Position numbers and translations under genes: made by a program | The notes under the pieces: generated by a model | What the model was told of the DNA's origin: nothing | Database searches by the model: none | The model's input: the letters and a program-made list of their open reading frames with translations, nothing else | Virus record (IMG/VR): IMGVR_UViG_3300045988_098461 | Coordinates: 20,546 to 84,545 of that record | Source: a virus | Length of the DNA: 64,000 bases | Direction: 5' to 3' (one strand) | In this document: positions 22,517-40,752 of the stretch, piece after piece | Layout of the letters: each line of letters starts with the position of its first letter | Numbering within the stretch: the first letter of the stretch is position 1

Positions 22517-22578
22517 AATATATAATTGCGGATGGAGGTCTATTCTATAGTATCTCCTTCCGCTCTATTAAGTAAACT

Positions 22579-22731: not shown

Positions 22732-22740
22732 TATTTTTAT

Positions 22741-22935: not shown

Positions 22936-23174
22936 TAGGATTGAATGATAGACCAACAAGAGCAAAAAGGGTTGTTGTGGTTCAGTTAAAAGACAAAAAG
23001 CCTGAACCTTTCCTTACTTGCCCAGAGATTTATTTAAAGTACGATAAAGAGAAGATTGGCATCTGTCTTAATGCTCTATGGAATGCTCTTGCTAAAGATG
23101 GTTGCTACGAGAATAAGAAATGCAAAATCTCTTATCAGAGTATCGAACAATTAAAAACATTGGCATGGGAGTAG
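22932..23174 (+). CDS. hypothetical protein
   Basis: 80-aa ORF with GTGAGGTGA upstream. Confidence 0.45.
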   Translation: MIGLNDRPTRAKRVVVVQLKDKKPEPFLTCPEIYLKYDKEKIGICLNALWNALAKDGCYENKKCKISYQSIEQLKTLAWE

Positions 23175-23707: not shown

Positions 23708-23740
23708 TTACATTTTCTCGGAATATAAAATGAATAAACT

Positions 23741-24376
23741 ATGAAATTTAATAAAGAACTATCGAAGGATTTGCAAGTAAAGACAATTATGCAAAACTTC
23801 GACAAAAAGCAAGCCGAATGCGATGCTCTTAAAAAAGAAAACGAAGAATTGAAAAAGAAGTTAGAGCAGAAGGATATTCTGTATCGTAATATGCTCAATC
23901 GCTTTAGTAATATGAGTAGTCAAACAAATATTGACTATAAGGAAAGATACGAACAGCTCAAAGCTGAAAAGGCTGAGAGCGGTATGAGATATAGCCGAAT
24001 CCTTAACGATTTAAATAAGGCTTATGGAATGCTTGAATCCGTCAATGGTATTATGAATAGCGCAAACGAAAAGATAGAAGCATTCTGCTCTGATAATATG
24101 GTTAAAAACGATATTCGTTCCAAAGTTATTGAGCCTGCAACAGATAGCACTCCATCTTCTGTAAGCGTTAAAGAACAGAAGTTCGTTAGTTATGTCCGTG
24201 AACTTATTGCTAACTTTAAGGAAACAGGCTCTCTTCGAGGAATAGCTATGATAGCAAAAGACTATGGGGTTAGTTCTTTATCTAAGGAGCAATTCTTTCG
24301 CTACGGATTGAACAATGAGGTTATAACTGATGAATATATCATTAGTATTTACGAAAAGGCTAAAAAACATTTGTAA
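23741..24376 (+). CDS. coiled-coil protein
   Basis: 211-aa ORF. Confidence 0.5.
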   Translation: MKFNKELSKDLQVKTIMQNFDKKQAECDALKKENEELKKKLEQKDILYRNMLNRFSNMSSQTNIDYKERYEQLKAEKAESGMRYSRILNDLNKAYGMLESVNGIMNSANEKIEAFCSDNMVKNDIRSKVIEPATDSTPSSVSVKEQKFVSYVRELIANFKETGSLRGIAMIAKDYGVSSLSKEQFFRYGLNNEVITDEYIISIYEKAKKHL

Positions 24377-24377
24377 T

Positions 24378-24668
24378 ATGGAAGAAACTAAGTATAATAA
24401 TGATGTACCTTACGAAAGAGTAGTGCTTAGAGTGTTAGAAAACTACTTGAAGATGCAAATCAAGCTAACTCGTTACCAGAAGAAGGTCAAAGAGCAAGGT
24501 GAGTTGCTTAATAAATTAAACAACAAACACAATGATTACGAGAAGGTCGTAGCTGAGCGTGATGAGCTTCTCCAAAAGAATAAAGAACTTTCTCGGCAAT
24601 TGAAGATTTACGAAGGTGTGCGCAAATACTTCAATAGTCAAGTCTCAAAAATAGAAACTGATAAATAA
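24378..24668 (+). CDS. coiled-coil protein
   Basis: Start moved to MEETKYNN, directly after the upstream TAA. Confidence 0.45.
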   Translation: MEETKYNNDVPYERVVLRVLENYLKMQIKLTRYQKKVKEQGELLNKLNNKHNDYEKVVAERDELLQKNKELSRQLKIYEGVRKYFNSQVSKIETDK

Positions 24669-24677
24669 TATATCAAT

Positions 24678-25100
24678 ATGAAGAAGATTTTATCTTGGTG
24701 CGGTTCTCATACAGATATGCTGTGTGCATTCTTTCTGATGGGATTCTGTTTCAATGCGGTGAAGGATGGTTGGTCTGAGGCGATATTATTCTTGCCGTTT
24801 ATCGTTACGTGGATATATGTCTATTACTTACAGAAATTTATTTGTCGTCTTATCAAAAAGAACGAAGAGTTGAAAGAAATCAATAAGCAGCTTGAAAAGG
24901 CTTACGAAGAAAAGACCTTGGCGTTTATCAGAACTGATGATTTGAAGATGCTCTACATCTATAAGTATTTGTTGGCTCAAAATAATGTGGATTTATGTAA
25001 GCGAAAGATTAACTGTACGAAGTATCTTGAAAGAAGAGAATATTATGAACGTATGATTGAATTTTTCGTTAAGGATATTAAGGCTAAAGAAATGCAATAA
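24678..25100 (+). CDS. membrane protein with a coiled-coil tail
   Basis: Two hydrophobic helices in the N-terminal 60 aa. Confidence 0.5.
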   Translation: MKKILSWCGSHTDMLCAFFLMGFCFNAVKDGWSEAILFLPFIVTWIYVYYLQKFICRLIKKNEELKEINKQLEKAYEEKTLAFIRTDDLKMLYIYKYLLAQNNVDLCKRKINCTKYLERREYYERMIEFFVKDIKAKEMQ

Positions 25101-25501
25101 TGAAGTACGATGAGCTTTTAAAGAAGGAGAGCCAGAAGAAAGGCAGAAGCAAACCACGGCATATTGAATCGCAGATTCAGATTCAGATGGTGAAGTGGTT
25201 TCGCTTGCAATACCCTCGCTATATCATTGCCGCCATCCCTAACGGAGGACAACGAAATGCGCTTGAAGCGAAGATTATGAAAGGCGAGGGCGTTTTGGCT
25301 GGCTTCTCCGACCTTATTATTATAGCAAGAGAAAATGTCCTATTTATTGAAGTTAAAACTAAGGACGGGTATCAATCTGATTTGCAAGCCAAATTTCAGT
25401 CTGACGTTGAGCGATTAGGCTTTCAGTACAGCATTTGCCGCTCATTGGATGAGTTTATCTTAACCATCCAAAAATGGTTAAAAGATAAGTTTTCTGTGTA
25501 A
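25100..25501 (+). CDS. VRR-NUC domain nuclease
   Basis: ESQIQIQMVKWFRLQYP...GFSDLIII...LFIEVKT... is a PD-(D/E)xK pattern of the VRR-NUC type. Confidence 0.7.
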   Translation: MKYDELLKKESQKKGRSKPRHIESQIQIQMVKWFRLQYPRYIIAAIPNGGQRNALEAKIMKGEGVLAGFSDLIIIARENVLFIEVKTKDGYQSDLQAKFQSDVERLGFQYSICRSLDEFILTIQKWLKDKFSV

Positions 25502-25566
25502 AAATATCCGATTTTCTTAGTTTTGTATTAATATCTATTAAAATACTAATAAAAACACTGAAAAGA

Positions 25567-25598
25567 TTTGTTAGTTTCAAAAGAAATTATTAATTTTG
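25567..25598 (+). promoter_or_regulatory. Bacteroidota-type promoter TTTG-N20-TAATTTTG (cassette copy A)
   Basis: TTTG at 25567-70 and TAATTTTG at 25591-98. About 105 bp is nearly identical to 34452-34560. Confidence 0.65.
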
Positions 25599-25645
25599 CG
25601 GTGTAAATAATTAATAAATAGGTTTAACAATTAAAAGATACAACA

Positions 25646-25864
25646 ATGGAAACAAAGAAAATTGCTCGATTCAGATTTACAGCACTTGCCCATACTTTCG
25701 ATAGTTGGGATGAGGTTATAAGTTATTACGAAAGACTTGTAGAGTGTGGTGAATGTATGGTACTTCCTACTCTTTCATTTTGGGATGGTAAGGTAAGAAC
25801 CAATAAGTGGCACGCACATGTTAAAAAGAATGGTAAAATTGAGTTTACAGAAATTGAAAAATAG
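25646..25864 (+). CDS. hypothetical protein
   Basis: First ORF after cassette A. Confidence 0.55.
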   Translation: METKKIARFRFTALAHTFDSWDEVISYYERLVECGECMVLPTLSFWDGKVRTNKWHAHVKKNGKIEFTEIEK

Positions 25865-25875
25865 GAGATACGACA

Positions 25876-26241
25876 ATGGAGACAATAAACGTAAATGAGC
25901 TTTTAAATAAGCTCTCAGATAAGCAGAAGCAACTTCTAAAAGATACTATTATTAATGGCTGTTGGGGTACATGTGATAGTGAATTTGTAAACGAAAAAGG
26001 TATTATTATTGTGTCTAATTGTTATGGATATGTTGTTAATTTAGCAAAGGAAGCAGGGCATTTCAATGGTCGCCAAATATCAGCAATGTTCCGTTCTATA
26101 TATAGCAAACTCTGCCCGAATAATGGTACAGGTAATTTTCTTTCTCATATCTCTAATTATTGGGGTAATGGTTCGGGTGATGCTTTATTCATAAAGAGAG
26201 ATTATGTTATAGCTTTCGAGCGTTGGGCAAGAGAGCAATAA
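25876..26241 (+). CDS. hypothetical protein
   Basis: TAGGAGATAC at 25862-71, 4 nt before the ATG. Confidence 0.55.
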   Translation: METINVNELLNKLSDKQKQLLKDTIINGCWGTCDSEFVNEKGIIIVSNCYGYVVNLAKEAGHFNGRQISAMFRSIYSKLCPNNGTGNFLSHISNYWGNGSGDALFIKRDYVIAFERWAREQ

Positions 26242-26262
26242 CTCAATGAAGGAGATACGACA

Positions 26263-26493
26263 ATGATTACAATTATTAATAAATACACTGGCGAGGTTAT
26301 CACCAAGTACTCAGGTGCTTTGGTTGGTGAATCTACAGAGGATTCTTTTATTGCCAACGCAAAGGGTTCGGGTACGTTCAGAGGACGTTGGAATGCTATC
26401 GTAGAGTATTTTATTCCTCTGAAAGGGTTGAATGCAACACAATGCCTTCTTAAAAGCCAATACGCTGTGAAGGAATGTATGAAGAAGAAATAA
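26263..26493 (+). CDS. hypothetical protein
   Basis: AAGGAGATAC at 26249-58 before the ATG. Confidence 0.55.
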   Translation: MITIINKYTGEVITKYSGALVGESTEDSFIANAKGSGTFRGRWNAIVEYFIPLKGLNATQCLLKSQYAVKECMKKK

Positions 26494-26521
26494 TTAACGT
26501 TTAAAAATAGGAGATACAATT

Positions 26522-26908
26522 ATGGAAATCAAGGTAAATATACCACAAAACGATTATGTTCAACCAACCGAAGTTAGAGAGGAAGTCGTACAGGCAATCT
26601 GTAATGCCTTCTTATCTAATAGTTGTTGGGATATTTTTCATCCTTTCTCAGGTGCAAATAATGGTAGCCGACCTGCTACAAGACGTATTAGTTTGAGCAA
26701 TCCATGTTTTAGTGGACATGCCAACGATAAGGATATGGTTAGAATACATGGATGTGAAATGAAAGCTGCCTTTAAGGTGTTGATGAAGGCTGGTTATCAC
26801 ATGTATAAAGTGTATGACTATGGCTCTTGGATGGGTTACGCTTGCGATAAGAAACCTTTCCGTGAGGGTGCATCTGAGGTTCTTACGTTTAACGACTTTA
26901 TTGATTAA
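26522..26908 (+). CDS. hypothetical protein
   Basis: TAGGAGATAC at 26508-17 before the ATG. Confidence 0.55.
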   Translation: MEIKVNIPQNDYVQPTEVREEVVQAICNAFLSNSCWDIFHPFSGANNGSRPATRRISLSNPCFSGHANDKDMVRIHGCEMKAAFKVLMKAGYHMYKVYDYGSWMGYACDKKPFREGASEVLTFNDFID

Positions 26909-26912
26909 GCTT

Positions 26913-27512
26913 ATGTTTATAGAATTTAAGGATTTAAACGTAGTATTTAGGAAAAAGTTTCCTTTGGCTATCGTGTATCTTGATAAGTATGATAGTGAAC
27001 AATTCTTGAAGAAGCAAGGAATGGCAAAATCTGGCTCATATTGCAATTTTAGCCCACTTATTGCTATCGTTGATTTTGTTCCGCAGAAAATCGGGTGTGA
27101 GATAATTTTTACTAATTATCGCATTCTTAATAAAAAGGAAGAGGAAGATGCTTTAGCTATCTTTAAAAGAAGCAATCTTACTATCAATGATAAAGGGTTT
27201 GTTTCCTTCCTTGATTATAAGCAGATTTGCTTTGAGGTAGATGGAAATATTCTTCCTTATGATGATTTCTGTAAGTATCAGCTACCTAAGAATAAGGTAT
27301 TCAAACTAGTCTTTGATAATGGCTTCTCCTATCATGGCTCAGAACCTTTTAAGGGTGATGCAAAGAAGTATGCTGATACCGCAATAAGGATTGCTGAGAA
27401 GATTGGTTATCTTTGGTTTAGTTGGAGAATGGGTTTCACACTTAACAATCTTCTTAACGTAAGAGTTGTTTACGGAAAAAATGAAAGTTATTCAGAAATA
27501 TCTAATACATAA
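26913..27512 (+). CDS. hypothetical protein
   Basis: Start moved to MFIEFKDL, 4 nt after the upstream TAA. Confidence 0.5.
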   Translation: MFIEFKDLNVVFRKKFPLAIVYLDKYDSEQFLKKQGMAKSGSYCNFSPLIAIVDFVPQKIGCEIIFTNYRILNKKEEEDALAIFKRSNLTINDKGFVSFLDYKQICFEVDGNILPYDDFCKYQLPKNKVFKLVFDNGFSYHGSEPFKGDAKKYADTAIRIAEKIGYLWFSWRMGFTLNNLLNVRVVYGKNESYSEISNT

Positions 27513-27871
27513 TGATTATGGAAGAGATTAAAGAAAAGAAGTTTATCATAGAAGCAAAGGGCGAAGTGCCCTTTGCACAACGCACGGGTGATGGCTACGA
27601 GCTATTCAATAACGAACGAACAATGAAGTTCTGTGCGAGAAGGCAACAGATACTGGATAATGAAACGGGTGAACAGAAATCTTGTTTTGCTGTTTTCTGC
27701 TTCGTTAAAGAGGATGATGGATGGGTACAAGGTGATAACTATCATCAGACGGAAACCATCACCTCTTTTGTTAAGGATTTGAATATCTCTCCTTATTTTA
27801 CCAATGCTGTAAAGGAATATCGTGAGCAGATGGAAATCACAGAAATATGGGAGGTGAAAAAATGGGAATAG
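27512..27871 (+). CDS. hypothetical protein
   Basis: 119-aa ORF with a TAATG junction. Confidence 0.5.
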   Translation: MIMEEIKEKKFIIEAKGEVPFAQRTGDGYELFNNERTMKFCARRQQILDNETGEQKSCFAVFCFVKEDDGWVQGDNYHQTETITSFVKDLNISPYFTNAVKEYREQMEITEIWEVKKWE

Positions 27872-28062
27872 GAGCGATTTTAATCATCATAGGCGCATCC
27901 GTCATCGCATTGAGCAGCGTTGTTGCTGTTGGCGCAATGAATGGAAAATTAGAAGGTGTGGTAACCATACAAGAAAAAATCTTGATTACTATATTCTTAT
28001 TCATCTTACTCATAACGGGTTGGGTGCTATTGTATAACGGAATATCAATAATTAATCTGTAA
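27862..28062 (+). CDS. small two-helix membrane protein
   Basis: Start at MGIGAIL after GGAGGTGA. Confidence 0.5.
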   Translation: MGIGAILIIIGASVIALSSVVAVGAMNGKLEGVVTIQEKILITIFLFILLITGWVLLYNGISIINL

Positions 28063-28066
28063 TAAA

Positions 28067-28627
28067 ATGGGAAAGAGATTAAGCTTAGAAGATAAAGCTA
28101 AAATAGCTAACGGCAATGAACGTCATTGTAGGCAATGCAATCATCGTGTTTGCCCAGATGGTTTGCTTGAAGTATGTTCGGAGGCTTTTATTCGAGGGTA
28201 CAAGAAAGGCTATAAACAAAGTCAGAAAGAACAGAAAGAACGTATTGATAAGATACTCCACCCTGTTACTGAGCCTTGTGGTAGTAATGCTATCTTTGTC
28301 TTTTTTAGAGACGTAAGAAGTGGTGAATTACAACCTTATATTGAGGATATGAGAATGCCTGATGCTAAACGTTACCAAGATATAGGTTCAATAAAGTTTT
28401 CGCCAGAAAAAGACGAGCCGCAGAAACTACAGATTGCATGGTGTTATCCGAAGGATTTGATTAAGCTTCTTGGATATGACAAGAAGTATGCCGATTTTGA
28501 GCGTATAGCTCTTTCTGAAGGCGCATTCTCTTATCCTCGTGAGGAATATGAGGAAAATCTTCAGAAGTACTCTTCCGTGCGCTATGAACACAAAAAATAT
28601 TATCATTATCGGAAATTAAAAAAATAG
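28067..28627 (+). CDS. hypothetical protein (N-terminal Cys cluster)
   Basis: 186-aa ORF. Confidence 0.5.
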   Translation: MGKRLSLEDKAKIANGNERHCRQCNHRVCPDGLLEVCSEAFIRGYKKGYKQSQKEQKERIDKILHPVTEPCGSNAIFVFFRDVRSGELQPYIEDMRMPDAKRYQDIGSIKFSPEKDEPQKLQIAWCYPKDLIKLLGYDKKYADFERIALSEGAFSYPREEYEENLQKYSSVRYEHKKYYHYRKLKK

Positions 28628-28634
28628 CTTTGCT

Positions 28635-28829
28635 ATGGATAAAAATGATATTAGTCTAACAGTTATACTTGAAATCGGTGGTAACCTTTGCGGTATGACC
28701 ATAAAGGATAAGGATGATAAAGTTGTGCTATTCGAGCATTTGTCATTTAATGAGCAAATTAAGATTCTCAATAGCCTTAGTCAGAATTATAACTGCCTTG
28801 TGCGGTTCTTAAAAGAAAAGGAGGGATAA
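28635..28829 (+). CDS. hypothetical protein
   Basis: 64-aa ORF. Confidence 0.45.
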   Translation: MDKNDISLTVILEIGGNLCGMTIKDKDDKVVLFEHLSFNEQIKILNSLSQNYNCLVRFLKEKEG

Positions 28830-28925
28830 GGTATGAATTTGGTTCTATTTGTATTGATTATCATATCTGTTGGGGTTACTTTCGGATGTCTTGTGCAAGG
28901 TAATAATAATAAGGAGAAGTAAAGT

Positions 28926-29774
28926 ATGGAAGCAACTATTTTATTAGGCAATCATAATGATTGTAAGATTGATACGGGAAGATATGTAGAAACGGACGTT
29001 ATGGGTTGGAAAGCCACTATCTATGTACCGAGTGGTATTGATAATGAGCAGATTCAGAAAGCCCTTGATTACGCTTATTCTACTCTCTGTCAGAGTTGCT
29101 ATATGGAGTTTATCTTGGCAGACAACTTCCTTCTTATCTCTAAGGAGGTCTTTGATAAGAAGAAGGTGTTTAAGTTCAATCTTAAAAAGCACTTTACTGA
29201 ATGCCAAACATCTATTCGTGATACGATGAAGTTGTATGAGCGAAATATGGATGAAGACTACTATAATGAGTATTCTACCTATCTTTGGGATTTGATTAAG
29301 GATAAGGTTGAGAAGTTACGAAAGATGATTGAGGATAAGCTTCGCAATCTGAAATGTAAGTATAACCCTTATCTCTGCTCGTATGTCATTATGATTCAGA
29401 ACCTCGTACAGCAGATTAATGATACCCATATACACGTTATGGAGATTACCGAAAGGGAGTATGGAGTTGATATTGCTCCAAGCTACGAAAATTATCGGGC
29501 TAAAATGGCATTCACGCAAGCGGATAATTGTCTGTACGACATCATGCACGATGAAGCAGAGAAATTCCGTGACAATATCGTTAAAGATAAGAAGGTTATC
29601 GCCGTATGGTCTGATATAACAAGAACTCTCTATGACCCTATCAATGCAAAGAAGGCTCGTTTCTCGGCTTTCTATAGTATGCCTAAGGAAACACAAGCTC
29701 TCTATAATTTGAGAGAGGAGGATGGCTTCTGCGAGCCTAAAGAAGGTACTAAGAAATTCAAGAAAGGAGCGTAG
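28926..29774 (+). CDS. hypothetical protein
   Basis: 282-aa ORF with AAGGAGAAG upstream. It ends in TAG, 3 nt before and in frame with the methyltransferase ATG. Confidence 0.55.
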   Translation: MEATILLGNHNDCKIDTGRYVETDVMGWKATIYVPSGIDNEQIQKALDYAYSTLCQSCYMEFILADNFLLISKEVFDKKKVFKFNLKKHFTECQTSIRDTMKLYERNMDEDYYNEYSTYLWDLIKDKVEKLRKMIEDKLRNLKCKYNPYLCSYVIMIQNLVQQINDTHIHVMEITEREYGVDIAPSYENYRAKMAFTQADNCLYDIMHDEAEKFRDNIVKDKKVIAVWSDITRTLYDPINAKKARFSAFYSMPKETQALYNLREEDGFCEPKEGTKKFKKGA

Positions 29775-29777
29775 GGT

Positions 29778-30521
29778 ATGGAGTTAGATAATATTTACTT
29801 CGGAGATTGCATTAACCTTATGCGTGATATTCCTGATAAAAGCATAGATTTATGTGTTACGGATGCACCATATCTCCATAATAAATCGCCACTTAGTCCT
29901 ACGTATGATGGGAGTGAATGGAATCAGAAAAGTTCCTTTGGAAAATCGGAGCTTTATAAATATGGTGGTGATATGATGGGAGGGATGAGTTGTTTTGGCG
30001 AAGAAGAAATAGATAAGTTCCTTGATGCATTAAAGCCGAAAATGAAGATAATGAATGCTTATATGTTCTGTTCGGAAGAACAGGTACCGTATTATTGTAA
30101 CTGGGCTAATAAGAATGGCTTGATGTTTACAATACTCGTTTGGGAAAAGCCGTTATCTATCATTAACAAAAATCGTTTTTCGCAGAACCTGGAGTACATA
30201 GTACGAGTATATGATTACGGTACTGCTCTTAATCGGTTAAATAATAACTTGTATTATAATCGGGTAAAGAAAGAAAAACCGATTAACGGGAAAAGTAAGA
30301 ATCATCCAACAGAAAAACCTGTCTCAATTATGCAAGAGTTCGTTGAACTGAGCAGTAATGAGGGTGATGTGGTCTTGGATGCGTTCTGTGGCTCTGGTAC
30401 GCTTGCGATAGCGTGCATTAATACTAACAGACATTTCATTTGCTTTGAGAAGAATAAAAAATTCTTTGATATTGCTAAGAAACGGGTTAAAGAACGGAAG
30501 CAACAACAAACAATTTGGTAA
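29778..30521 (+). CDS. DNA methyltransferase (N6-adenine/N4-cytosine, beta class)
   Basis: Motif IV is TDAPY. It is followed later by HPTEKP and AdoMet motif I DAFCGSGT. Confidence 0.8.
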   Translation: MELDNIYFGDCINLMRDIPDKSIDLCVTDAPYLHNKSPLSPTYDGSEWNQKSSFGKSELYKYGGDMMGGMSCFGEEEIDKFLDALKPKMKIMNAYMFCSEEQVPYYCNWANKNGLMFTILVWEKPLSIINKNRFSQNLEYIVRVYDYGTALNRLNNNLYYNRVKKEKPINGKSKNHPTEKPVSIMQEFVELSSNEGDVVLDAFCGSGTLAIACINTNRHFICFEKNKKFFDIAKKRVKERKQQQTIW

Positions 30522-30533
30522 TTAGTTATAGGT

Positions 30534-30692
30534 ATGAATAGAGAAGATATGCGTAGGCTGATACATTATGCACGTATTCGTGCTAAGCAAAGAGGATTAA
30601 AATTATCCCAAATTACCATTGAAGAATGTATTAAAGATATGCAATTTTGGGAGAAAGGGATTTTTGCGTATGCGCCTTTTAAGGTATCTTAA
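30534..30692 (+). CDS. small hypothetical protein (52 aa, hand-found)
   Basis: MNREDMRRLIHYARIRAKQRGLKLSQITIEECIKDMQFWEKGIFAYAPFKVS. Confidence 0.3.
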   Translation: MNREDMRRLIHYARIRAKQRGLKLSQITIEECIKDMQFWEKGIFAYAPFKVS

Positions 30693-30891
30693 AGAATAGA
30701 CGGATTCTCATTTTATCTTAATATATATGTTGTATCTCTTTGGGGGCGGTGGTCTCGGCTGCTGCTCCCTTCTGTAAGTATAATAAGTTTATCAAGGTAA
30801 AGAAATAAGTCTCTGATTCTTAACACGAAAGCTATTAAGCACTATTAATTCCGATTTATTTCTATTAATATCAAAAATAGTTGGAGAAAAA

Positions 30892-30923
30892 TTTGGTAGT
30901 TCGCAGATTTCTTTTTAATTTTG
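30892..30923 (+). promoter_or_regulatory. Bacteroidota-type promoter TTTG-N20-TAATTTTG
   Basis: TTTG at 30892-95 and TAATTTTG at 30916-23, preceded by three direct CTATTAA copies. Confidence 0.6.
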
Positions 30924-31154
30924 CGGCGTTCAATAAAATATCAGTGGTGAGGTTAGAAGCTCTGCCACAAAAAGGTAGGGCGTTTTTTATGCTCGCTTCT
31001 TAACGGATTACGATATACGTGTATCGCTTCCCTTGGGTGTATTGTAATGGTGCATCCGTGCTTTCACTGATAGGCATTGAACAAAGGGTAAAGCGGTACA
31101 CTCTTTTTGTTGTATCAACCCGACAAGTGTTTAACGTTCAAAAATATCAGTTCA

Positions 31155-32018
31155 ATGGACGAAATTAAAATTTTGCACAAATCTACTTTCCTAGGTAAGG
31201 AAATAGATGTATGGGGAACTTTTGATAACCCATTATTTCGGGCAAGTGATGTAGCAGATTGGCTACATAACACAAATGTCTCTAATATGGTTAAGAAGGT
31301 TGATGAGGACGAAGTGACTAAGTTTAACTTAGGCAGTCGTCAAGGTGAAACTCTTTTTCTTACAGAGAATGGTCTTTATGAGATACTTATGTTATCTCGC
31401 AAGAAGGAAGCCAAGCAGTTTAAGAAGGGAGTAAAAGCTATCCTTCACGAAATCCGCACCAAGGGCGGCTACATTGCTTCTTCGGTCAATGATACTCCCG
31501 AAGCTATCATGGCACGAGCCTTGAAGATTGCGGATGAGACATTGAAGCGGAATGAGCAAAGAGTTCGTGAGCTTGAAGCTTAGACCGAGCAGCAGGCACA
31601 GACCATCGGCATTCAGCAGAAAGAACTGACTGTTGCCGCACCAAAGGTAAAGTACTACGATGATACACTTGCATCAACGGACTGCCTTACCACCACACAA
31701 GTTGCTGATGACCTCGGTATCAGCGCAAGAGCACTCAATCAACAACTTTCCAATGCAGGTATTCAATACTTTCAATCAGGTTCTTGGCATTTGAAGGGCA
31801 AGTTCCGTGAATGGCAGCTCGCAAGCACCCGAACCTACAATTATATCAAGGGTGATGGTTCTACGGGCACAAAAGTAAACCTCGTATGGAATCAACGTGG
31901 CAAGCGTTTTATTCTTGCTCTCTATAACAACGACTTTAATGTGAAAGATGCTATCGCTGAAATCAACGGCGAGAAGAGAGCTGCGCTTGTATCTAAAAAC
32001 AATCAGTCTAACTTTTAA
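31155..32018 (+). CDS. Bro-N / KilAC(ANT)-type antirepressor, interrupted by an in-frame TAG at 31581-31583
   Basis: The N-terminal part (track ORF ending at 31583) looks Bro-N-like. Hand translation after the TAG is stop-free to 32018 and reads TEQQAQTIGIQQKELTVAAPKVKYYDDTLASTDCLTTTQVADDLGISARALNQQL...VWNQRGKRFI, which is ANT/KilAC-like. Track ORF 31791..32018 is the same frame. Confidence 0.6.
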
Positions 32019-32038
32019 TTGAATAGGAGAAATCAAAA

Positions 32039-32281
32039 ATGGATAATCAGAATATGATGATAGAGGTAACAGTTGATAATGATGCTACTCAGCGGTGTGT
32101 CGGTCTGCTTAAAGAACTTATGGCGGTACAGGAGAAGGCTATGAAGTTCTTGGTATCTGAGGGTATTGATGATAGCAATGAGGGTACGATGATTGCCGAG
32201 GGCATCGGTAACGCAGTGAAAGCCTTTGGTGGCGTACTGCCAGAGGGTATCTACAATAATGTAGTCGGTATTGAGGTTTAA
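32039..32281 (+). CDS. hypothetical protein
   Basis: TAGGAGAAATC upstream of the ATG. Confidence 0.5.
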   Translation: MDNQNMMIEVTVDNDATQRCVGLLKELMAVQEKAMKFLVSEGIDDSNEGTMIAEGIGNAVKAFGGVLPEGIYNNVVGIEV

Positions 32282-32431
32282 TGTTATGCGTGAATAGGAG
32301 ATACGCAATACAACAAGGTGTAAATAATTATAGGAGATACAAATGTAAAAGGCAGTACTTTGAAATACGTGCTGCCTTTGTTTTGTTTATATATAATCTC
32401 TGTATTTTCCTGTTATTTACAGAAAAAACTA

Positions 32432-32439
32432 TACCTTTG
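32432..32439 (+). promoter_or_regulatory. -7 box TACCTTTG for the gp10 paralog
   Basis: 24 nt upstream of the ATG at 32463. The -33 box is imperfect. Confidence 0.4.
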
Positions 32440-32462
32440 ACATGGTAAACAAAATATAAGTT

Positions 32463-32939
32463 ATGGCAAAAGTACAATTACGAATTAAGGGTATTGAAGC
32501 CCTCAAAAAGAAACTAATGGAGCAAAGAGAGATAATGATTAATTATCTTACATACGCTATGGCTGAACTAGGTGAGCGTGCTGTCACCTATTCTAAGGAT
32601 AACAAGGGTTATCAAGACCATACAGCAAATTTAAAGAACACCATTGATTATGCTTTATTTCTTGATGGCGAACTTGTGTGCGTTGGCGACCACGAGGAAT
32701 TAAATGGAACTGAAAAAGATAAGGCTCATTTTATCCCTGATGCAGCAGTTAAGTATGCTCAACAGCAAGGTGTTATTGCCCCCGAAGGATATTCTCTTAT
32801 CATTGCATCTGGTGTAGATTACGGTCAACATGTAGAAAATAAGGGCTACAACGTATTGTACCTAACAAAATTCTTTCTTAAAGATGAAATGAAAAAGATA
32901 ATACTTAAAGCTATAGAGAATGCGAAGCAAAATAACTAA
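32463..32939 (+). CDS. HK97 gp10-family protein, intact paralog of 11133..11612
   Basis: 158 aa, collinear with the structural copy (...KDNKGYQDHTANLKNTI...GYSLIIASGVDYGQHVENKGYNVLYLTKFFLKDEMKKI). Has its own -7 box and hairpin. Confidence 0.6.
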   Translation: MAKVQLRIKGIEALKKKLMEQREIMINYLTYAMAELGERAVTYSKDNKGYQDHTANLKNTIDYALFLDGELVCVGDHEELNGTEKDKAHFIPDAAVKYAQQQGVIAPEGYSLIIASGVDYGQHVENKGYNVLYLTKFFLKDEMKKIILKAIENAKQNN

Positions 32940-32964
32940 GAGTGAGCCAACTGACCCACTCTTA
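32937..32964. terminator. hairpin between convergent genes
   Basis: TAAGAGTG/CACTCTTA, an 8-bp stem. Confidence 0.45.
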
Positions 32965-33007
32965 GTTTAGTATAGATGTCCGTAATTCTTATAAGAAAGG
33001 CAGGGCA

Positions 33008-33172
33008 CTATCTGCGCTCTGCCTTTTCTTTTTCTCTTTGCTTTCGTTCAGCCCTTGCGAGCCGAATTTCTTCATTAATCTCGTCCATCGTCATATTGAC
33101 GTTATTCTTCCTAGCTTCTTCTATGAGAGCATTGAAGTTCTCTAAAGCCTTCTTCTTTTCTTCTTCTGTCAT
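33008..33172 (-). CDS. small charged helical protein (54 aa, hand-found)
   Basis: MTEEEKKKALENFNALIEEARKNNVNMTMDEINEEIRLARAERKQREKEKAERR, with a TAATG junction to the upstream gene. Confidence 0.4.
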   Translation of the reverse strand: MTEEEKKKALENFNALIEEARKNNVNMTMDEINEEIRLARAERKQREKEKAERR

Positions 33173-33759
33173 TATTTTATATTAATCAGTTCGTTTCTAT
33201 CTATCTTAGGAGCTTCCTTTTTATCTGAATCAAAGTCGAGTATATATTTTTGAGGATAACTAATACAATGTAGAAAAATATACTTCCTCTCATCAATATT
33301 TATAGCCCTTACGACAAAGGTATCATTTCTATAAAAATATGAGTTATTATCATTGAGAGTGAAATCAGCTCTTATCTTCTCTTTGATGATATTATTATCA
33401 ACGGGCGTTTGCTCATATCCGTTCTCGGTAAGTAGATAAAGAAGCTTTTCGTTACTTTGCAGTTTTAAGTCTTTATATTGGTAATCCTGTCCAACAACAA
33501 TAAAGCTACCTGTTAGCTCACCAAGATGTTTATCTACATAACTATATCCTATAAGGCTATATATGTTAGACAATACAACCGTATCTTTATTCATTTCATC
33601 AATAGGATGAGTAGAGATATATTGCTTGATAGTTTGTTTGGTTGCATCTGGTATAGGCGATAAGCTTGTTATCTTCTGTTGAGCGTTGGCTGTTATACAA
33701 AAGAGAAGTTCACTAAATATACATATCTTCTTTATCTGTTTCATATTATTTATCTTCAA
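33172..33759 (-). CDS. secreted protein (signal peptide)
   Basis: N-terminus ...MKQIKKICIFSELLFCITANAQQ. Confidence 0.5.
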   Translation of the reverse strand: MKINNMKQIKKICIFSELLFCITANAQQKITSLSPIPDATKQTIKQYISTHPIDEMNKDTVVLSNIYSLIGYSYVDKHLGELTGSFIVVGQDYQYKDLKLQSNEKLLYLLTENGYEQTPVDNNIIKEKIRADFTLNDNNSYFYRNDTFVVRAINIDERKYIFLHCISYPQKYILDFDSDKKEAPKIDRNELINIK

Positions 33760-34096
33760 GTGTTATAAAAGTCAGATTATCTTTATCACAAGAAAACATA
33801 GCTTGCCCCACATTATAACCTCCGAAGCCATTTTTTGCTCTATATGTAACAACAAACAACTTCTCTCCCTGTTTTGACGTTTCTTGCTCTTGCATATCAA
33901 CGAACTCATAACTATCTGGGTCACGTAATCGTTGTTTGATTAAATCGCCAGCCATCGTCTCAACATACTCCTTGTTTTCGTACAGAGGGGTATTCATAAG
34001 TTTTTCTGTCTCTTTTTTGTTTTCATTCTGTCCGATAGCTATCATTAAAAAGAACAAAATAACAAGGATTCCAAGACATCCACATCCCTTCTTCAT
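33746..34096 (-). CDS. membrane-anchored / exported protein
   Basis: MKKGCGCLGILVILFFLMIAIGQ..., with TATAGGAGATAT upstream. Confidence 0.5.
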   Translation of the reverse strand: MKKGCGCLGILVILFFLMIAIGQNENKKETEKLMNTPLYENKEYVETMAGDLIKQRLRDPDSYEFVDMQEQETSKQGEKLFVVTYRAKNGFGGYNVGQAMFSCDKDNLTFITLEDK

Positions 34097-34112
34097 AACT
34101 ATATCTCCTATA

Positions 34113-34340
34113 TTAATATTTATAAATTGTACAATACCTACTTAAAACACGCTCTGCGGCGTTATCTTTTCCTTGCTTGGTATATACTAAGGCAAGGCGA
34201 AGATAACCCGTTCTGCGCAAGCAACCGAGGTACATCAGCCGCTCGTAGCAATATGTGGCTCTGCTTAGTATTCCATCACGGAGGTAGCGTTGAGCCATTG
34301 CCGCCAACTCCTTTGGTGATGCGTTATAAATCTGTGTCAT
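34113..34340 (-). CDS. small helical-repeat-like protein
   Basis: 75-aa ORF, first gene of the leftward cassette. Confidence 0.4.
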   Translation of the reverse strand: MTQIYNASPKELAAMAQRYLRDGILSRATYCYERLMYLGCLRRTGYLRLALVYTKQGKDNAAERVLSRYCTIYKY

Positions 34341-34365
34341 AACTCGTCTGATTTGGTTATGTATG

Positions 34366-34373
34366 CAAAGGTA
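34366..34373 (-). promoter_or_regulatory. -7 box TACCTTTG
   Basis: Plus strand reads caaaggta, 26 nt upstream of the ATG at 34340. Confidence 0.4.
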
Positions 34374-34485
34374 GCGAAAAAATGAATACTATATATTTAT
34401 ATTGCATTTTTTATATTAATATAACCTTAATTTACATATCAATATATTAAAAGCTATTAAAATACTAATAAAAATACCGAAAAGA

Positions 34486-34517
34486 TTTGGTGGTTTTAAA
34501 AGAAATTATTAATTTTG
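34486..34517 (+). promoter_or_regulatory. Bacteroidota-type promoter TTTG-N20-TAATTTTG (cassette copy B)
   Basis: TTTG at 34486-89 and TAATTTTG at 34510-17. Nearly identical to cassette A. Confidence 0.65.
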
Positions 34518-34571
34518 CGGTGTAAATAATTAATAAATAGGTTTAATATTTAAATTATAGGAGATACAACA

Positions 34572-34754
34572 ATGAAAGTTAAATTGATTAATGGAACAGA
34601 AGTAGAAGCTAACGTTTTTGATTACGTTGCTCAGATTTACGAAGGTGGCAAATGGCAGGCAGTTGCCGTTAGCTCTGATTACAATGAAGCTGAAAAGAAA
34701 CGTAAAGAGTATGCCGTAAAGGGCTGCTATACAAGAATAGAACAGCTTTACTAA
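34572..34754 (+). CDS. hypothetical protein
   Basis: TAGGAGATAC at 34558-67 before the ATG. Confidence 0.55.
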   Translation: MKVKLINGTEVEANVFDYVAQIYEGGKWQAVAVSSDYNEAEKKRKEYAVKGCYTRIEQLY

Positions 34755-34779
34755 TTAATGATATATAGGAGATACGACA

Positions 34780-35205
34780 ATGAATAAGTACGCAGAATTA
34801 AAGAAGAAGCATCAGAAAGAGCTTAATAAATTGCCAATGAAAGCTGCTTTTGGTAAAGAGCAGTTTAAGAAAATGATGGAAGAGTGGGGGCTTACCACCA
34901 ACGCCGAAGATATTAGTAAGATTGATATGCTCGTTTGTGGTTGCTATTGCTTAAAGGAAGATACCCATCTTTTCGAGGAGTACTTTCAGAGAACACAGAA
35001 AGAGCTTAAAGAGTTCTTAAAGGATGATGATAATCTTAAATCAGCATTCAAATATGAGTTCGCTAACCATGAATGCGGATATACATATACACCGCAAGAT
35101 GCGCTTCCTCCGCTTAATCTTACCTATGAAGAGGTTGAGAAGAATGAGCGTTTAAATAGGGTCTTTAACGAGGCTTGGTGTGAATATTTAGATAAATGTG
35201 AATAA
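34780..35205 (+). CDS. hypothetical protein
   Basis: TAGGAGATAC at 34766-75 before the ATG. Confidence 0.55.
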   Translation: MNKYAELKKKHQKELNKLPMKAAFGKEQFKKMMEEWGLTTNAEDISKIDMLVCGCYCLKEDTHLFEEYFQRTQKELKEFLKDDDNLKSAFKYEFANHECGYTYTPQDALPPLNLTYEEVEKNERLNRVFNEAWCEYLDKCE

Positions 35206-35208
35206 GAT

Positions 35209-35520
35209 ATGTATAAAGAAGGCGATGTTTTAGTACTTTATAATAATTGGCGTGCTGAGTATTGCATATTCATTCTACACAGAATATACAATGATGATTG
35301 GATAGAAGCTCATGCAAAGTATTCTCTCCCATTCAAAAAGCTTGGAGTAGGAGCAAATAATGCTTCTACAAACGTAAAATACTCTACGGGGTGTTTGAGA
35401 AAAGCGTATGAGGATGAAAGAGAATTTTTGTTAGAAAAAATGAAGGAAAAAGGTTATTCATACGATTTTAAGAAGAATAAACTGCTACATTCATTCAATT
35501 ATGAAAAAGGAAGAAATTAA
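35209..35520 (+). CDS. hypothetical protein
   Basis: 103-aa ORF with a TAAGATATG junction. Confidence 0.5.
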   Translation: MYKEGDVLVLYNNWRAEYCIFILHRIYNDDWIEAHAKYSLPFKKLGVGANNASTNVKYSTGCLRKAYEDEREFLLEKMKEKGYSYDFKKNKLLHSFNYEKGRN

Positions 35521-35619
35521 GATAAATGAGCATTGTAAGCACTATTTCTTAGGCTTCTGCCACTTCTATTTAGGTGGCTGCTGCTCTGGTATTAAATGCG
35601 GATATAAATAATTAAGATT

Positions 35620-35841
35620 ATGACAAAGTTTATTGAGGTAAAGTATAAAGGGCATTGTACCCTTGTAAATATAGATAATATCGCTTACGTTGAACCTTCA
35701 CGAAATGGCGATATAGTAACATCTATAAAGCTTAATTGCAAGACCACACCAACGGGCGGTCAAGTGATTCTCTGCGAGGATGATTACCACACATTCTTGA
35801 CTAGATTGGAAAACCTTGTTGTCGTTGATAAAGCTGAGTAA
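35620..35841 (+). CDS. hypothetical protein
   Basis: 73-aa ORF. Confidence 0.45.
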   Translation: MTKFIEVKYKGHCTLVNIDNIAYVEPSRNGDIVTSIKLNCKTTPTGGQVILCEDDYHTFLTRLENLVVVDKAE

Positions 35842-35844
35842 GAT

Positions 35845-36078
35845 ATGAGAGCATTTGACGTACTTTTAGCCTTACATCGCTTGGATATGCGACAGGGCAA
35901 GGATTATCTTGAAGCTCCTGAAAAGAATGATTTGGAGCTGAATGTGATAGAAGGTAAGCTGAAACGGAATCATTGGTATTGGTGCGATTTCCATAAGCAG
36001 CCAATGCTCGGCGAGCCTTCGGTTATCCTCACTCTTGGCGGTGGGGATATTCAATACCTTTATGAAGTAGAAAAGTAA
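35845..36078 (+). CDS. hypothetical protein
   Basis: 77-aa ORF with a TAAGATATG junction. Confidence 0.45.
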   Translation: MRAFDVLLALHRLDMRQGKDYLEAPEKNDLELNVIEGKLKRNHWYWCDFHKQPMLGEPSVILTLGGGDIQYLYEVEK

Positions 36079-36091
36079 ATTAATATAAGTT

Positions 36092-36358
36092 ATGTATCAG
36101 ATAAATGTTGTAACATATAGCACAAGAGTGGACGTAAAGAACGCTCGCCGCAAGGTAGCGAATCGACAAAAGAGAATGCTCGGAGGATGGTTTGAAAGCG
36201 TGAAATTAGCAAGAAAAGCCTTGAAAGAATTCTTTGAGAAGGAAGGCTATCAGATAGGTAACGAGGTCGAGGAAAAGGGCAGCGAGACCTATGTTAAGAC
36301 GTTATTCTTCGGTAACATTATGCTCGAAATGGAGTATAAGATAATCAAGTATAATTAA
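36092..36358 (+). CDS. hypothetical protein
   Basis: 88-aa ORF. Confidence 0.45.
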   Translation: MYQINVVTYSTRVDVKNARRKVANRQKRMLGGWFESVKLARKALKEFFEKEGYQIGNEVEEKGSETYVKTLFFGNIMLEMEYKIIKYN

Positions 36359-36361
36359 TCT

Positions 36362-36601
36362 ATGGCTCGTTTCGCTCTCAGAAATCAGGAGAAGATAAAG
36401 CAAGCATTCGGGGAAGAAAGGTTGGATGAGCTTTTGAAAGCATTGAAGCTGTATTCTGCCAAGTACCCGAAATTATCGTTGAACACAATCATCGAAGAGG
36501 GTAAGCCTTATCCTTCTTTCGTAGTTGATAAGATTGCCGTATTATATGTAACTCGCCTGATGTATGACGTTTATCACGTTGCTTTAAAGGAGTTCTTATA
36601 A
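36362..36601 (+). CDS. hypothetical protein
   Basis: 79-aa ORF. Confidence 0.45.
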   Translation: MARFALRNQEKIKQAFGEERLDELLKALKLYSAKYPKLSLNTIIEEGKPYPSFVVDKIAVLYVTRLMYDVYHVALKEFL

Positions 36602-36731
36602 ACAAAAAGCACCGCCCTCGGAGATACGAATGAGGACGATGCTAGATGTAAATAATTATTATGTTTAACGTTGTGAGTACATAGGAGATACGCACTCGAT
36701 ATAACAATTAATGCAAAAGTAATAAAAAATA

Positions 36732-36763
36732 TTTGGTTATCTGAATATTTCTTCGTAAATTTG
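36732..36763 (+). promoter_or_regulatory. Bacteroidota-type promoter TTTG-N20-TAAATTTG
   Basis: TTTG at 36732-35 and TAAATTTG at 36756-63. Confidence 0.6.
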
Positions 36764-36796
36764 CGAATAATTAACATTAAAATAGGAGATACAGCT

Positions 36797-37585
36797 ATGA
36801 TAGGAGCAATTATAGGTGATATTGTAGGCTCTAAATATGAGTTTAATAACACATTTGATTATAACTTTAAACTATTTGACGAAGGTTGTAATTTTACAGA
36901 TGATACTATCTGTACAATAGCCGTAGCAGATGCTATTCTTAAAGAAGGTGGTGATAAAAAGCCGAATGTCGGAGATTATTGTATCTCGCTTCAATACTGG
37001 TGTCAGAAGTATCTAAACCCAATGGGTGGGTATGGCGCAAGCTTCGCAAAATGGGTTCGTAGCTCTAATCCACAGCCTTATGATAGTTTTGGAAATGGAG
37101 CAGCTATGAGAGTTAGTCCTGTGGGTTGGGCATTCAAAGAAAATTCTGATATCATTCATCAGGCAATGATGAGCGCAAAGGTTTCGCATAGCCATGTTGA
37201 AGGATTGATTGGTGCTATTGCGGTAGCAGATTGTGTACATGCTTTAAAAGCATATAAACAAAAAGATTTGATTAGGGTAATAGCAAAACAATATTATGGC
37301 TCTGATTGGAATAAGAATCTTGTACCAAGAGGTAGATGGGCAGAAACTTGCCAAGAGTGCGTTCCTCTTGCCTTTAGAATAGTCCTTGATAGTGATAGCT
37401 TCGAGGACGCAATCAGAAATGCTGTATCCTACGGCGGTGATAGCGATACGATGGGAGCAATCGTTGGTTCAATCGCTCAGCCACTCTTTGGTATTCCACA
37501 AGAAATGAAGGAAAAAGCATTGAACTATCTCCCTTTGGATATGAAGAATGTAGTAACTAAATTTATTGATAGATATGGTGAATAA
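36797..37585 (+). CDS. ADP-ribosylglycohydrolase (DraG/Tri1-like ARH)
   Basis: Start at MIGAIIGDIVGSKYEF after TAGGAGATAC (36783-92). Also carries ...GAAMRVSPVGW... and ...SYGGDSDTMGAIVGSIA..., typical of the ARH family. Confidence 0.8.
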   Translation: MIGAIIGDIVGSKYEFNNTFDYNFKLFDEGCNFTDDTICTIAVADAILKEGGDKKPNVGDYCISLQYWCQKYLNPMGGYGASFAKWVRSSNPQPYDSFGNGAAMRVSPVGWAFKENSDIIHQAMMSAKVSHSHVEGLIGAIAVADCVHALKAYKQKDLIRVIAKQYYGSDWNKNLVPRGRWAETCQECVPLAFRIVLDSDSFEDAIRNAVSYGGDSDTMGAIVGSIAQPLFGIPQEMKEKALNYLPLDMKNVVTKFIDRYGE

Positions 37586-37910
37586 GGAAGATTTAATCAA
37601 GCACTGCCGATACTATAGAGGTGGTGAGAACCCAAATACCAACGAAAATATGGCTTGGTTTTGGGATATGGAAAGAGTGTATGTTAATAGCGAAGGAAAG
37701 TTTAAAGGTGAGGAAGAATATTATAAGAAAATCAATGGTAAGGAATATAAGGGGATTCCACATACATTGCTTATTATAATGTTCACTTCATGGGCTAAAG
37801 CAGCCTTCAATATTAAGGAAGAGATAGGTAGGTTCTATAAGCTGATAGACGAATACCTCTTTATCCCAAACGACCATTTCCCAGAGGATAAAATTCCAAA
37901 CGAACTATAA
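37575..37910 (+). CDS. hypothetical protein translationally coupled to the ARH
   Basis: Start MVNKEDL overlaps the end of the ARH gene. Confidence 0.45.
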   Translation: MVNKEDLIKHCRYYRGGENPNTNENMAWFWDMERVYVNSEGKFKGEEEYYKKINGKEYKGIPHTLLIIMFTSWAKAAFNIKEEIGRFYKLIDEYLFIPNDHFPEDKIPNEL

Positions 37911-37947: not shown

Positions 37948-40752
37948 TTAATATCCGATATTGCTATCCTTTACATAAGATAAATCTCTTATTTCTTGCC
38001 CTATAACCTCGCAGTCTATGTAGGTCTTTCCACCTTCTTCATAAACCTTTGTTATTCGCATTCGTGTTCCTCTCTGAAAGAGTGTTTCGTGCTCGGAACT
38101 ATATGTTGAGAAACGACTTACTCCATCCCAACTTCTTTTATCACCACAACCGAAAGCAGAGAAAGGTTCTACGTAAGCAGCCTTTGTTCCTTTTGGTGCA
38201 TATATGTTCATAATAACACTTCGAGTATTGAAGCCTTTTCCTTTTCGGCTACCAGTTGACATAAAACCACCTTCTTGCATTTCCATTCCAACAAGGTCTT
38301 GAAGGTTTTTTGGCATAGAACCGCCAGCAAACTTAATTCGTGATTCAATAACTTTCATTCCATCATCACCTCTTGTAAACCACATATCGGTAGGAAGTTC
38401 GTTCTTTTCTATATAGCTTGTTATATTATTAACCTTCTCTATGAACCTTTCCTTCGTTTGGTAACTATCATATTTTCTTCCTTGTAATGGTTCATTTACA
38501 TCGCAATAATGATGAGTGTATTCGTATGTGAAATCTTTTTCTTTTTCTGTTGCTGCTATCCATTGTTTGGATGCAACATCTACGAGGGTTTTATCAGCTT
38601 TTGCACCATTACCCTTATCCCATACTGCGGCATCTTTCCTTGATTGAGAGAATCGGTCTGTATCAAATACAACATTCTTCGCATTTCGTTTTGCTTTCGC
38701 ATTAATAAGCGTTTCTTTCTTTTGCTTAGCTTCATAAAGCAACTGCTCAGCAAGGGTCTTATCCTTTGCGAGCATGGCGTGTTCAAGGTCATAGATAAGC
38801 TTATGATATATCTTGCTCTGTGTCTTATAACCTTTTACGTCAGCATAAGCTTTATTGATATTCACCCAATCAATCGCCGTTTTTACCTCATCAAGCTTTT
38901 TGAGATATGCCGCTTGCGATACCTTCCATGTAGCATACTTCTGTTGAACCCCGTGCATATTTCCACCAAGGAAATCAACTGCCTCAAATTGCAATTTGCT
39001 AACTTGCTTTTCAAGCGTCAAGCTTTGCCATTGAGCCAACTTTGCTTCTACGGCATCATATACTCCGTGCAATTCCTGGGACGTGAACTGCTTATGCCAC
39101 TTATTAACATCAGGGATGAGAGCAGAAAGTGATAATTCATCCTTTTTAATAGCAGAAATGGCGTTTGCGAGCGTTTTTGCTTCTTTCCTTGCTAATGTAT
39201 AGTTAGCAGACTTTAATGCGATTAGAACGGCAGAAACATCGGTTTCTCCGTAATTAGCAGCCACCTTCATAACATTTATCGCAACCTTGCGGTCAGTCCA
39301 TGCAAGTTTAGTCTGATAACCTCGCTTGAATCTATCAAACAAAGATGCTATCTCAGAAGCACTCTTTTTGTCCTTGATTGCGTAGCGGATAGCATAGTAA
39401 CGTTCAAAGAGGTCTTGGCTCTTTATATCCGTAACAGATTTGCTACCGAGCAGATTATGAACTAAGCCATTGTAATAGTCACGTCTATGCTTATCCCATC
39501 GGCTCTGTATCTTATCTATCTGCTCTTTAGTTCTAAGGGCGTGACGTTCCTTTGCCTTCGCAAGTATAAGCTCCTTAGAAGAAACCGCCTTTAACCCCAA
39601 TTTCTTGCGGTCTAACGGGCTTAAAAGATGTGCCCAATACTTTGTATTATCTTGTAAGTGCCAAGCCAATTTACCCCTCATTCCTGCCTTCACAATAGCT
39701 TCGGAGTTATCCTTAATGTACTGATTGTACTTCTCGGGCATAGTGAGCACGGCAAAAGGGGATACGTAGTTGCTCATATCCTCGCCAGCCATTAAGCGTT
39801 TATAAAACTCCTTTTTCTCATCGCCTTGTATAGTGATAGGGTCTGAGGTACAGATACATTGAGGATGCCAAGAAATCCATACGTAATCTTTCGGGTAGCG
39901 ACCTTCAAGGTCATTGCATATATCATCAATATTGTGCTGTGGTGATACGTGAATATACTGACCGATAACGAACGGCTCGTTCTGCCATCGCTCGTTTCTT
40001 GCCTTGTGATATGCGGCATTTATCTCCGTTCTTGCTACTCTGAGAGCATTCTTTCTTGCCGAGCGGTAAACACCCATGCCTACTTTCTCTAATGGCTCTT
40101 CAATAAAGCGCACCTTGCCGTCAATGATTCTACGTCTGCGCCAAGTCACCACATCTTTCTTCTTTCCGTTCTTCTGAACCTTGATGGTATGATAACGGCG
40201 ATACATCATATCTGGGTCATTAAGGTATCTGCGAATACTCTTGCCGATTTCCTCTGCTGATGAGCCTTGTTTGATTCCGTCCGCAATGGTGTTGCTCATA
40301 GCCATTTCAAACTCGCTCTTCGTCTGTTGGCAATAGTTCCAAACAATCTGAGCGAGATTCAATCCATTCTTTGTTTTCAAACGATTTGCAATAAACGTGG
40401 CTGCGGCGGTATCTCGTGCGACCCTTATTGCTTTATCAGTAAGCACGGAATAACCGCCTATAACCATTTCATCGTGGTTATACGCCAACGCAACGCCATC
40501 GGTGATGCCGCTCTTATAACAAAGAAGGCTATTCTGATAGTAATCATTAAAGATGTCGTTCAAACGAGCCTTTAACTGCGGAAAGTTATCAAAGTTAAAA
40601 AGCGCATCATCTTCGAGCACATCTTCTCCATAGCCAAGAGAGGTAAGCTTCTTGACATAATCGCTGTATAATCTGCCCAACCGCTTATTATAAACGGCGA
40701 ACAGATTATTCAGTTGTTCTTTCTGTTGTTTTGATGTGAGCTTCTTAGACAT
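37948..40752 (-). CDS. MuF/SPP1 gp7-type minor head protein fused to a C-terminal ADP-ribosyltransferase toxin domain
   Basis: MuF core ...HVSPQHNIDDICNDLEGRYPKDYVWISWHPQCICT.... The C-terminal ~190 aa carry the R-S-E triad: WFTRG, GGFMSTGS and SSEHETLFQRG (ExE). Confidence 0.8.
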   Translation of the reverse strand: MSKKLTSKQQKEQLNNLFAVYNKRLGRLYSDYVKKLTSLGYGEDVLEDDALFNFDNFPQLKARLNDIFNDYYQNSLLCYKSGITDGVALAYNHDEMVIGGYSVLTDKAIRVARDTAAATFIANRLKTKNGLNLAQIVWNYCQQTKSEFEMAMSNTIADGIKQGSSAEEIGKSIRRYLNDPDMMYRRYHTIKVQKNGKKKDVVTWRRRRIIDGKVRFIEEPLEKVGMGVYRSARKNALRVARTEINAAYHKARNERWQNEPFVIGQYIHVSPQHNIDDICNDLEGRYPKDYVWISWHPQCICTSDPITIQGDEKKEFYKRLMAGEDMSNYVSPFAVLTMPEKYNQYIKDNSEAIVKAGMRGKLAWHLQDNTKYWAHLLSPLDRKKLGLKAVSSKELILAKAKERHALRTKEQIDKIQSRWDKHRRDYYNGLVHNLLGSKSVTDIKSQDLFERYYAIRYAIKDKKSASEIASLFDRFKRGYQTKLAWTDRKVAINVMKVAANYGETDVSAVLIALKSANYTLARKEAKTLANAISAIKKDELSLSALIPDVNKWHKQFTSQELHGVYDAVEAKLAQWQSLTLEKQVSKLQFEAVDFLGGNMHGVQQKYATWKVSQAAYLKKLDEVKTAIDWVNINKAYADVKGYKTQSKIYHKLIYDLEHAMLAKDKTLAEQLLYEAKQKKETLINAKAKRNAKNVVFDTDRFSQSRKDAAVWDKGNGAKADKTLVDVASKQWIAATEKEKDFTYEYTHHYCDVNEPLQGRKYDSYQTKERFIEKVNNITSYIEKNELPTDMWFTRGDDGMKVIESRIKFAGGSMPKNLQDLVGMEMQEGGFMSTGSRKGKGFNTRSVIMNIYAPKGTKAAYVEPFSAFGCGDKRSWDGVSRFSTYSSEHETLFQRGTRMRITKVYEEGGKTYIDCEVIGQEIRDLSYVKDSNIGY

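Follow-up and report, generated by a model that had tools for sequence, protein, structure and literature searches.

The antirepressor gene at 31155-32018 on the plus strand of the DNA analysed here (a 64,000-nt stretch, referred to as the window, covering positions 20,546 to 84,545 of the IMG/VR record IMGVR_UViG_3300045988_098461) is interrupted by an in-frame TAG at 31581-31583. This TAG is very probably a very recent CAG>TAG nonsense mutation in the antirepressor of a Segatella copri prophage, which makes it an ordinary loss-of-function allele and not a readthrough signal. An earlier note on this DNA preferred regulated readthrough and gave a nonsense mutation as the alternative. It is this alternative that the comparison supports, as the relatives have Gln at this codon and sister prophages differ from the window by one base within the gene. 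The feature is an ordinary nonsense allele of a well-known gene type.

The antirepressor frame and its relatives

Translation of 31155-32018 on the plus strand confirmed that an in-frame TAG splits the antirepressor frame. The frame begins with the ATG at 31155 and runs through 142 codons ending in ...RVRELEA to the TAG, and it then continues for 144 stop-free codons to the TAA at 32016-32018. The ancestral gene therefore has 287 codons and is interrupted at codon 143. The truncated ORF (31155-31583) encodes 142 aa, consisting of the Bro-N domain and half of the linker, while the orphaned 3' portion (31584-32018) holds the remaining linker and the ANT/KilAC domain. In the upstream half, Bro-N (PF02498) was found by Pfam at residues 22-94 with E=8.8e-15, the domain score being 55.5 bits against a gathering cut-off of 25.6. 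In the downstream half, ANT/KilAC (PF03374) was found at residues 155-258 of the fused protein with E=9.1e-21 and 74.7 bits against a cut-off of 25.3, so the ANT/KilAC similarity that the earlier note had read from the letters is borne out. PHROG 130 (anti-repressor Ant) spans the TAG in one alignment, covering residues 16-259 with E=4.7e-44. Together with the orthologs, which are single genes, these matches agree with the view that Bro-N and KilAC belonged to one ancestral polypeptide. The stop had been placed exactly at the domain junction; it does lie between Bro-N and ANT, but it sits inside a Gln/Glu-rich linker, 49 codons past Bro-N and 12 codons before ANT, and not at a boundary.

Could the KilAC half be a separate gene? 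Past the TAG, the frame has no ATG, GTG or TTG until a TTG at 31791 (codon 213), which is already within the ANT domain. Lacking an in-frame start ahead of that codon, the KilAC half cannot be its own gene. The orthologs, moreover, are single proteins of 286-287 aa, and not the two separately started genes that the earlier note had considered as a possible refutation; a separately initiated KilAC gene was thus ruled out. The gene callers of the source assemblies predict exactly the 142-aa product, and this Bro-N fragment is the predicted main product of the gene in the window. Since both domains are present and the TAG at codon 143 keeps them from forming one polypeptide, the gene is a disrupted member of the Bro-N/KilAC (AriS-like) group.

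What do the relatives have at codon 143? With the fused protein as query, 2,939 matches were obtained at E<=1e-10. The best homologs are uninterrupted two-domain proteins of 286-287 aa in Segatella copri prophages, with 86-99% identity. Among the best 120 of the 2,939 matches, Gln is aligned to the TAG in all 119 that could be scored, one being unscorable, and tblastn gives Gln likewise in each of the 62 related loci whose match covers the site. The same holds at the nucleotide level. The base at window position 31581 is C in 47 of the 47 relatives aligned there; L001-L004 read CAG at this codon, as do all 26 IMG/VR contigs with a match to the flanking pattern and every related locus outside the source sample that was checked as DNA. 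The closest sisters are L125 (ERZ28596170) and L127 (SRR28082571 and other samples). Their identity to the window is 99.94-99.96% across 5.5-6.2 kb, and exactly one base of the antirepressor gene differs between them and the window, the C of CAG143. The GenBank phage collection gave no match to the 2.5-kb region. The comparison of TAG and CAG in related prophages, which the earlier note had proposed as a check, thus returned CAG in the relatives and TAG in none.

The antirepressor gene has also been disrupted in other prophages. In L001-L003, the gene carries near its 3' end an inserted IS with a DDE_5/DDE_Tnp_1 transposase (at 10001-12095 in L001, and likewise in L002 and L003), which leaves a 251-aa product. 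In L075, a CAA>TAA change gives a stop near codon 221 (about position 20407 of L075). These disruptions are independent of the TAG in the window.

Occurrence of the allele and its mutational background

Among the contigs inspected, the TAG allele was found only in assemblies of one sequencing run, ERR1190652, from a gut sample. The contig ERZ917644 (184,885 nt) of this run is 100% identical to window positions 21155-41583. The 142-aa product also occurs on two more long contigs. Another contig with a product of this length is cut by the contig end and has C at the site. No match to the TAG allele was obtained in species-representative genomes (genome_contigs) or in JGI metagenome contigs.

How does this substitution compare with the others that are private to the window? 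The count covers the 27.8 kb of the window with at least five relatives, in which there are 44 window-private substitutions: 23 nonsynonymous, 15 synonymous, 5 intergenic and 1 nonsense, the last being that at position 31581. C>T is the commonest change (12/44). No private indels were found in the 27.8 kb compared outside one mosaic patch. Under the codon usage and substitution spectrum of the window, about 5.2% of coding substitutions are expected to be nonsense, and one was observed among 39 private coding changes; the same model makes CAG>TAG the likeliest of all nonsense paths. In the 435 nt downstream of the TAG there are 0 window-private substitutions, where only about 0.7 are expected. 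One might suspect an error in sequencing or assembly, or that a minority variant was raised to the consensus, as the allele is readable from a single sequencing run only and the change, a single C>T, belongs to the commonest private class. We consider this improbable, for the two independent assemblies of ERR1190652 (an ENA MEGAHIT-style assembly and Logan) agree on T at this position, and the 20 kb around the site is free of other anomalies and of private indels.

Many apparent "stops" from the tblastn scans were dropped after a check of frame and strand when they came from antisense or off-frame shadow ORFs or from N-terminal over-extensions. The family-wide scan of 119 loci then gave about 18 independent interruptions of conserved genes, of which 9 are TAG, 4 TAA and 5 TGA. 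The expected nonsense fractions for TAG, TAA and TGA are 0.42, 0.38 and 0.20, and no significant TAG excess was found among the nonsense events of the 119 loci (p=0.36). The rate is about one event per 110 kb across homologous prophages, which gives a chance of about 0.09 for two or more interruptions in a 52.8-kb stretch. The chance that both of two nonsense events are TAG is about 0.17. The allele is like the nonsense alleles of decaying or polymorphic prophages in being a single-base, lineage-private change, and there is no difference of substance between them; as in decaying prophages, stops of all three types are spread over the homologs together with an IS insertion.

Then why does the stop lie between the two domains? 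Linker residues 135-155 hold 6 of the 8 CAG codons and 7 of the 17 Gln codons of the antirepressor gene. Because six of the eight CAG codons are there, a CAG>TAG change in this gene has a three-in-four chance of landing in the linker. The locus can serve as a calibration case in this respect: in Gln-rich linkers with many CAG codons, CAG>TAG falls between domains by default.

Readthrough, suppression and the second amber

The earlier note had also reported another in-frame TAG in the same prophage and argued that two independent genes with a TAG are less easily put down to chance decay. This second TAG does exist. A homology scan placed it at 11546-11544 on the minus strand, where it forms codon 23 of a head-tail-region gene of 159 codons (11133-11611), which runs from an ATG at 11611 to a stop at 11135-11133. 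An intact 158-aa paralog of this gene (phrog_5377, E=6.6e-24) is found at 32463-32939 on the plus strand, and the two genes are 66% identical in nucleotides by self-blast. The orthologs of the 159-codon gene have Q, E or K at codon 23. The TAG at this codon is also present in L114, L116 and L117, which come from other samples; two of them, L114 and L116, share 99.94-99.97% identity with the window across 20 kb. L115, L118 and L119 have instead a TAA at codon 7, sixteen codons upstream. A 129-aa product starting from Met31 of the gene is recorded on 19 contigs. As judged from these sequences, the TAG at 11546-11544 is an older polymorphism shared between samples. With TAG in some lineages and TAA in others, the 5' end has been interrupted repeatedly and not by ambers alone, which argues for tolerance or decay of this gene and not for suppression. 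Since the other TAG is older and shared, and two TAGs of two have a chance of about 0.17, the argument from two independent TAGs loses its force.

Is the antirepressor TAG a signal for regulated readthrough? In such a scenario, the TAG would be decoded in part, the proportion of Bro-N-only product to full-length antirepressor would depend on this, and the lysis-lysogeny decision would be tuned thereby. The frame is indeed open with both domains intact across the TAG, and the TAG stands for Gln, which is the residue put in by natural amber suppressors and by genetic code 15; the second in-frame TAG of the prophage also falls at a Gln position. A programmed signal, however, should be conserved, and conservation of the stop among the orthologs is absent, the TAG being found in no relative. 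Readthrough is largely refuted by this. No tRNA or tmRNA was found in the window, nor in the 119 related loci (1.96 Mb in total), so the search for tRNA-CUA suggested by the earlier note yielded no suppressor in either set. In an Rfam scan of the whole window no family reaches threshold, and the RNA at and after the TAG does not fold unusually well (z=-0.60; 48 of 200 shuffled sequences fold as well or better). TAG is a normal terminator here, as it ends 19 of the 97 predicted genes of the window (about 20%), and the gene with the second TAG has a nearby TAA in other lineages. Regulated readthrough, the inference that the earlier note had preferred, is hardly credible on this evidence.

Global recoding of TAG was ruled out as well. 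The long genes of the window (1714, 934 and 503 aa) contain no TAG, TAG terminates the above share of genes, and tRNAs are absent; over about 52 kb, a homology scan found no more than 2 interrupted genes.

There is a further scenario in which Gln would be restored in both genes in trans, by an amber suppressor tRNA of the host or by a co-infecting phage that reads TAG as Gln (Lak, Garnet or crAss-like). All three of these phage groups are reported on Prevotella or Bacteroidales. TAG-recoded Prevotella phages and prophages have been documented (bioRxiv 10.1101/2021.08.26.457843), and the closest orthologs have Gln at both TAGs of the window. The window resembles the code-15 phages in having in-frame TAG where relatives have Gln, and the host genus group is the same. 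Recoded Prevotella prophages, however, carry in-frame TAGs in most of their genes, so that gene calls under the standard code are heavily fragmented (bioRxiv 10.1101/2021.08.26.457843), whereas here the TAGs are in 2 of about 97 genes; and, unlike in code-15 phages, TAG is a common true terminator here and neither TAG of the window is conserved in the family. The absence of tRNAs from the window and related loci, the family-wide spectrum without TAG excess, the restriction of the antirepressor TAG to one sample among the contigs inspected and the chance of two TAGs of two given above all weigh against trans suppression, which we regard as very improbable. An extension of it would make both ambers (antirepressor Gln143 and head-tail Gln23) conditional alleles, in which Gln is restored when a recoding phage superinfects the Segatella cell. 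If this were true, superinfection by a Lak, Garnet or crAss-like phage would be coupled to prophage induction; the probability that we give to it is slighter still. Trans suppression is speculative in that it draws on ancestral Gln at both sites, nothing further having been found in its favour.

Several other sites in the window look like in-frame ambers and are tight gene junctions. The gene for a 282-aa protein (28926-29774) and that for an N6/N4 methyltransferase (29778-30521) are separated by a TAG, with the downstream ATG 3 nt past the stop, and in relatives the 282-aa and 247-aa products are called as two genes. A series of TAGs at 59330, 59702 and 59966 on the plus strand, upstream of RtcB, was rejected for the same reason, each next ATG being 3 nt past the stop. 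The spacing 'TAG nnT ATG' is thus found at 29772, 59330, 59702 and 59966 (all plus strand), and the same 3-nt spacing follows TAA in five cases. These sites are same-frame gene junctions that mimic in-frame ambers. The RtcB-like RNA ligase gene itself lies at 59972-61207 on the plus strand (phrog_1075, E=1.2e-131) and is preceded by three small same-frame ORFs.

Consequences of the nonsense allele and genomic setting

If the TAG is a nonsense mutation, what would follow for the prophage? One C>T change would have turned the Gln143 codon CAG into TAG in the strain or population sampled in ERR1190652. Given this single change, the standard code in phage and host, and no distal start, we infer that codon 143 ends translation. 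This would give a Bro-N fragment of 142 aa without the ANT/KilAC domain, and since the downstream 144 codons have no start of their own, the full-length regulator would be lost or strongly reduced. Known systems give some indication of the effect. [quoted passage not shown] In AriS of Listeria and its Bro-N-bearing homologs, the KilAC domain has a separable SOS-inhibitory activity, and in AriS-like proteins the loss of either domain gives the phenotype of a null mutant for virion yield (PMC9043618). The C-terminal domain is needed for the activity of phi11 Gp07 as well (PMC5944126). The window gene is comparable to these regulators, as PF02498 and PF03374 occur in one polypeptide in all of its orthologs, and relatives of the window phage also have AntA+ANT and pRha+ANT proteins, which is the same domain shuffling (PMC9043618). 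Unlike them, it is cut by a stop between the domains, and the likeness is at the domain level only. With the full-length regulator lost and both domains needed in AriS-like proteins, the prophage would probably respond less well to induction. By this analogy, the TAG is most likely a loss-of-function allele that weakens prophage induction; it may be neutral or may have been selected to lock the prophage.

The locus is accordingly to be annotated as a nonsense-disrupted (pseudogenised) Bro-N/KilAC antirepressor and not as a recoding site, and the finding has little import beyond annotation. One possible use, if the strain is cultured, is in studying antirepressor function in a Segatella prophage, for which the naturally occurring sister alleles with CAG and TAG would be an isogenic pair.

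As to the genomic setting, a motif search found TTTG-N20-TAATTTTG at 30892-30923 on the plus strand, about 230 nt upstream of the antirepressor ATG. We take this to be a Bacteroidetes-type promoter-like motif, following the Bacteroides promoter consensus. The motif match suggests that the antirepressor gene may have its own promoter at 30892-30923. Similar promoter-like motifs head other plus-strand blocks as well; with the one upstream of the antirepressor, they are at 19076, 30892 and 36732. The motif is also contained in a direct repeat of about 125 nt (25526-25651 and 34445-34577, plus strand; 87-88% identity), which lies upstream of two plus-strand gene blocks.

The layout of the window is unusual. 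The virion genes form two minus-strand blocks, one from tail to capsid (<1-18862) and the other with toxin, portal and terminase (37948-51636), and a plus-strand block of about 19 kb (19298-37910), which includes the antirepressor, parts the two. At its left end the window opens within a long minus-strand tail gene, which continues beyond that end, and a tyrosine-type integrase gene (62651-63826, minus strand) is located at the right-hand end. An ADP-ribosylglycohydrolase gene (36761-37585, plus strand) adjoins the gene for a 934-aa protein with an ADP-ribosyltransferase exotoxin domain (37948-40752, minus strand), which is beside the portal gene. These two genes may represent a pair of toxin and reversal enzyme in the virion module.
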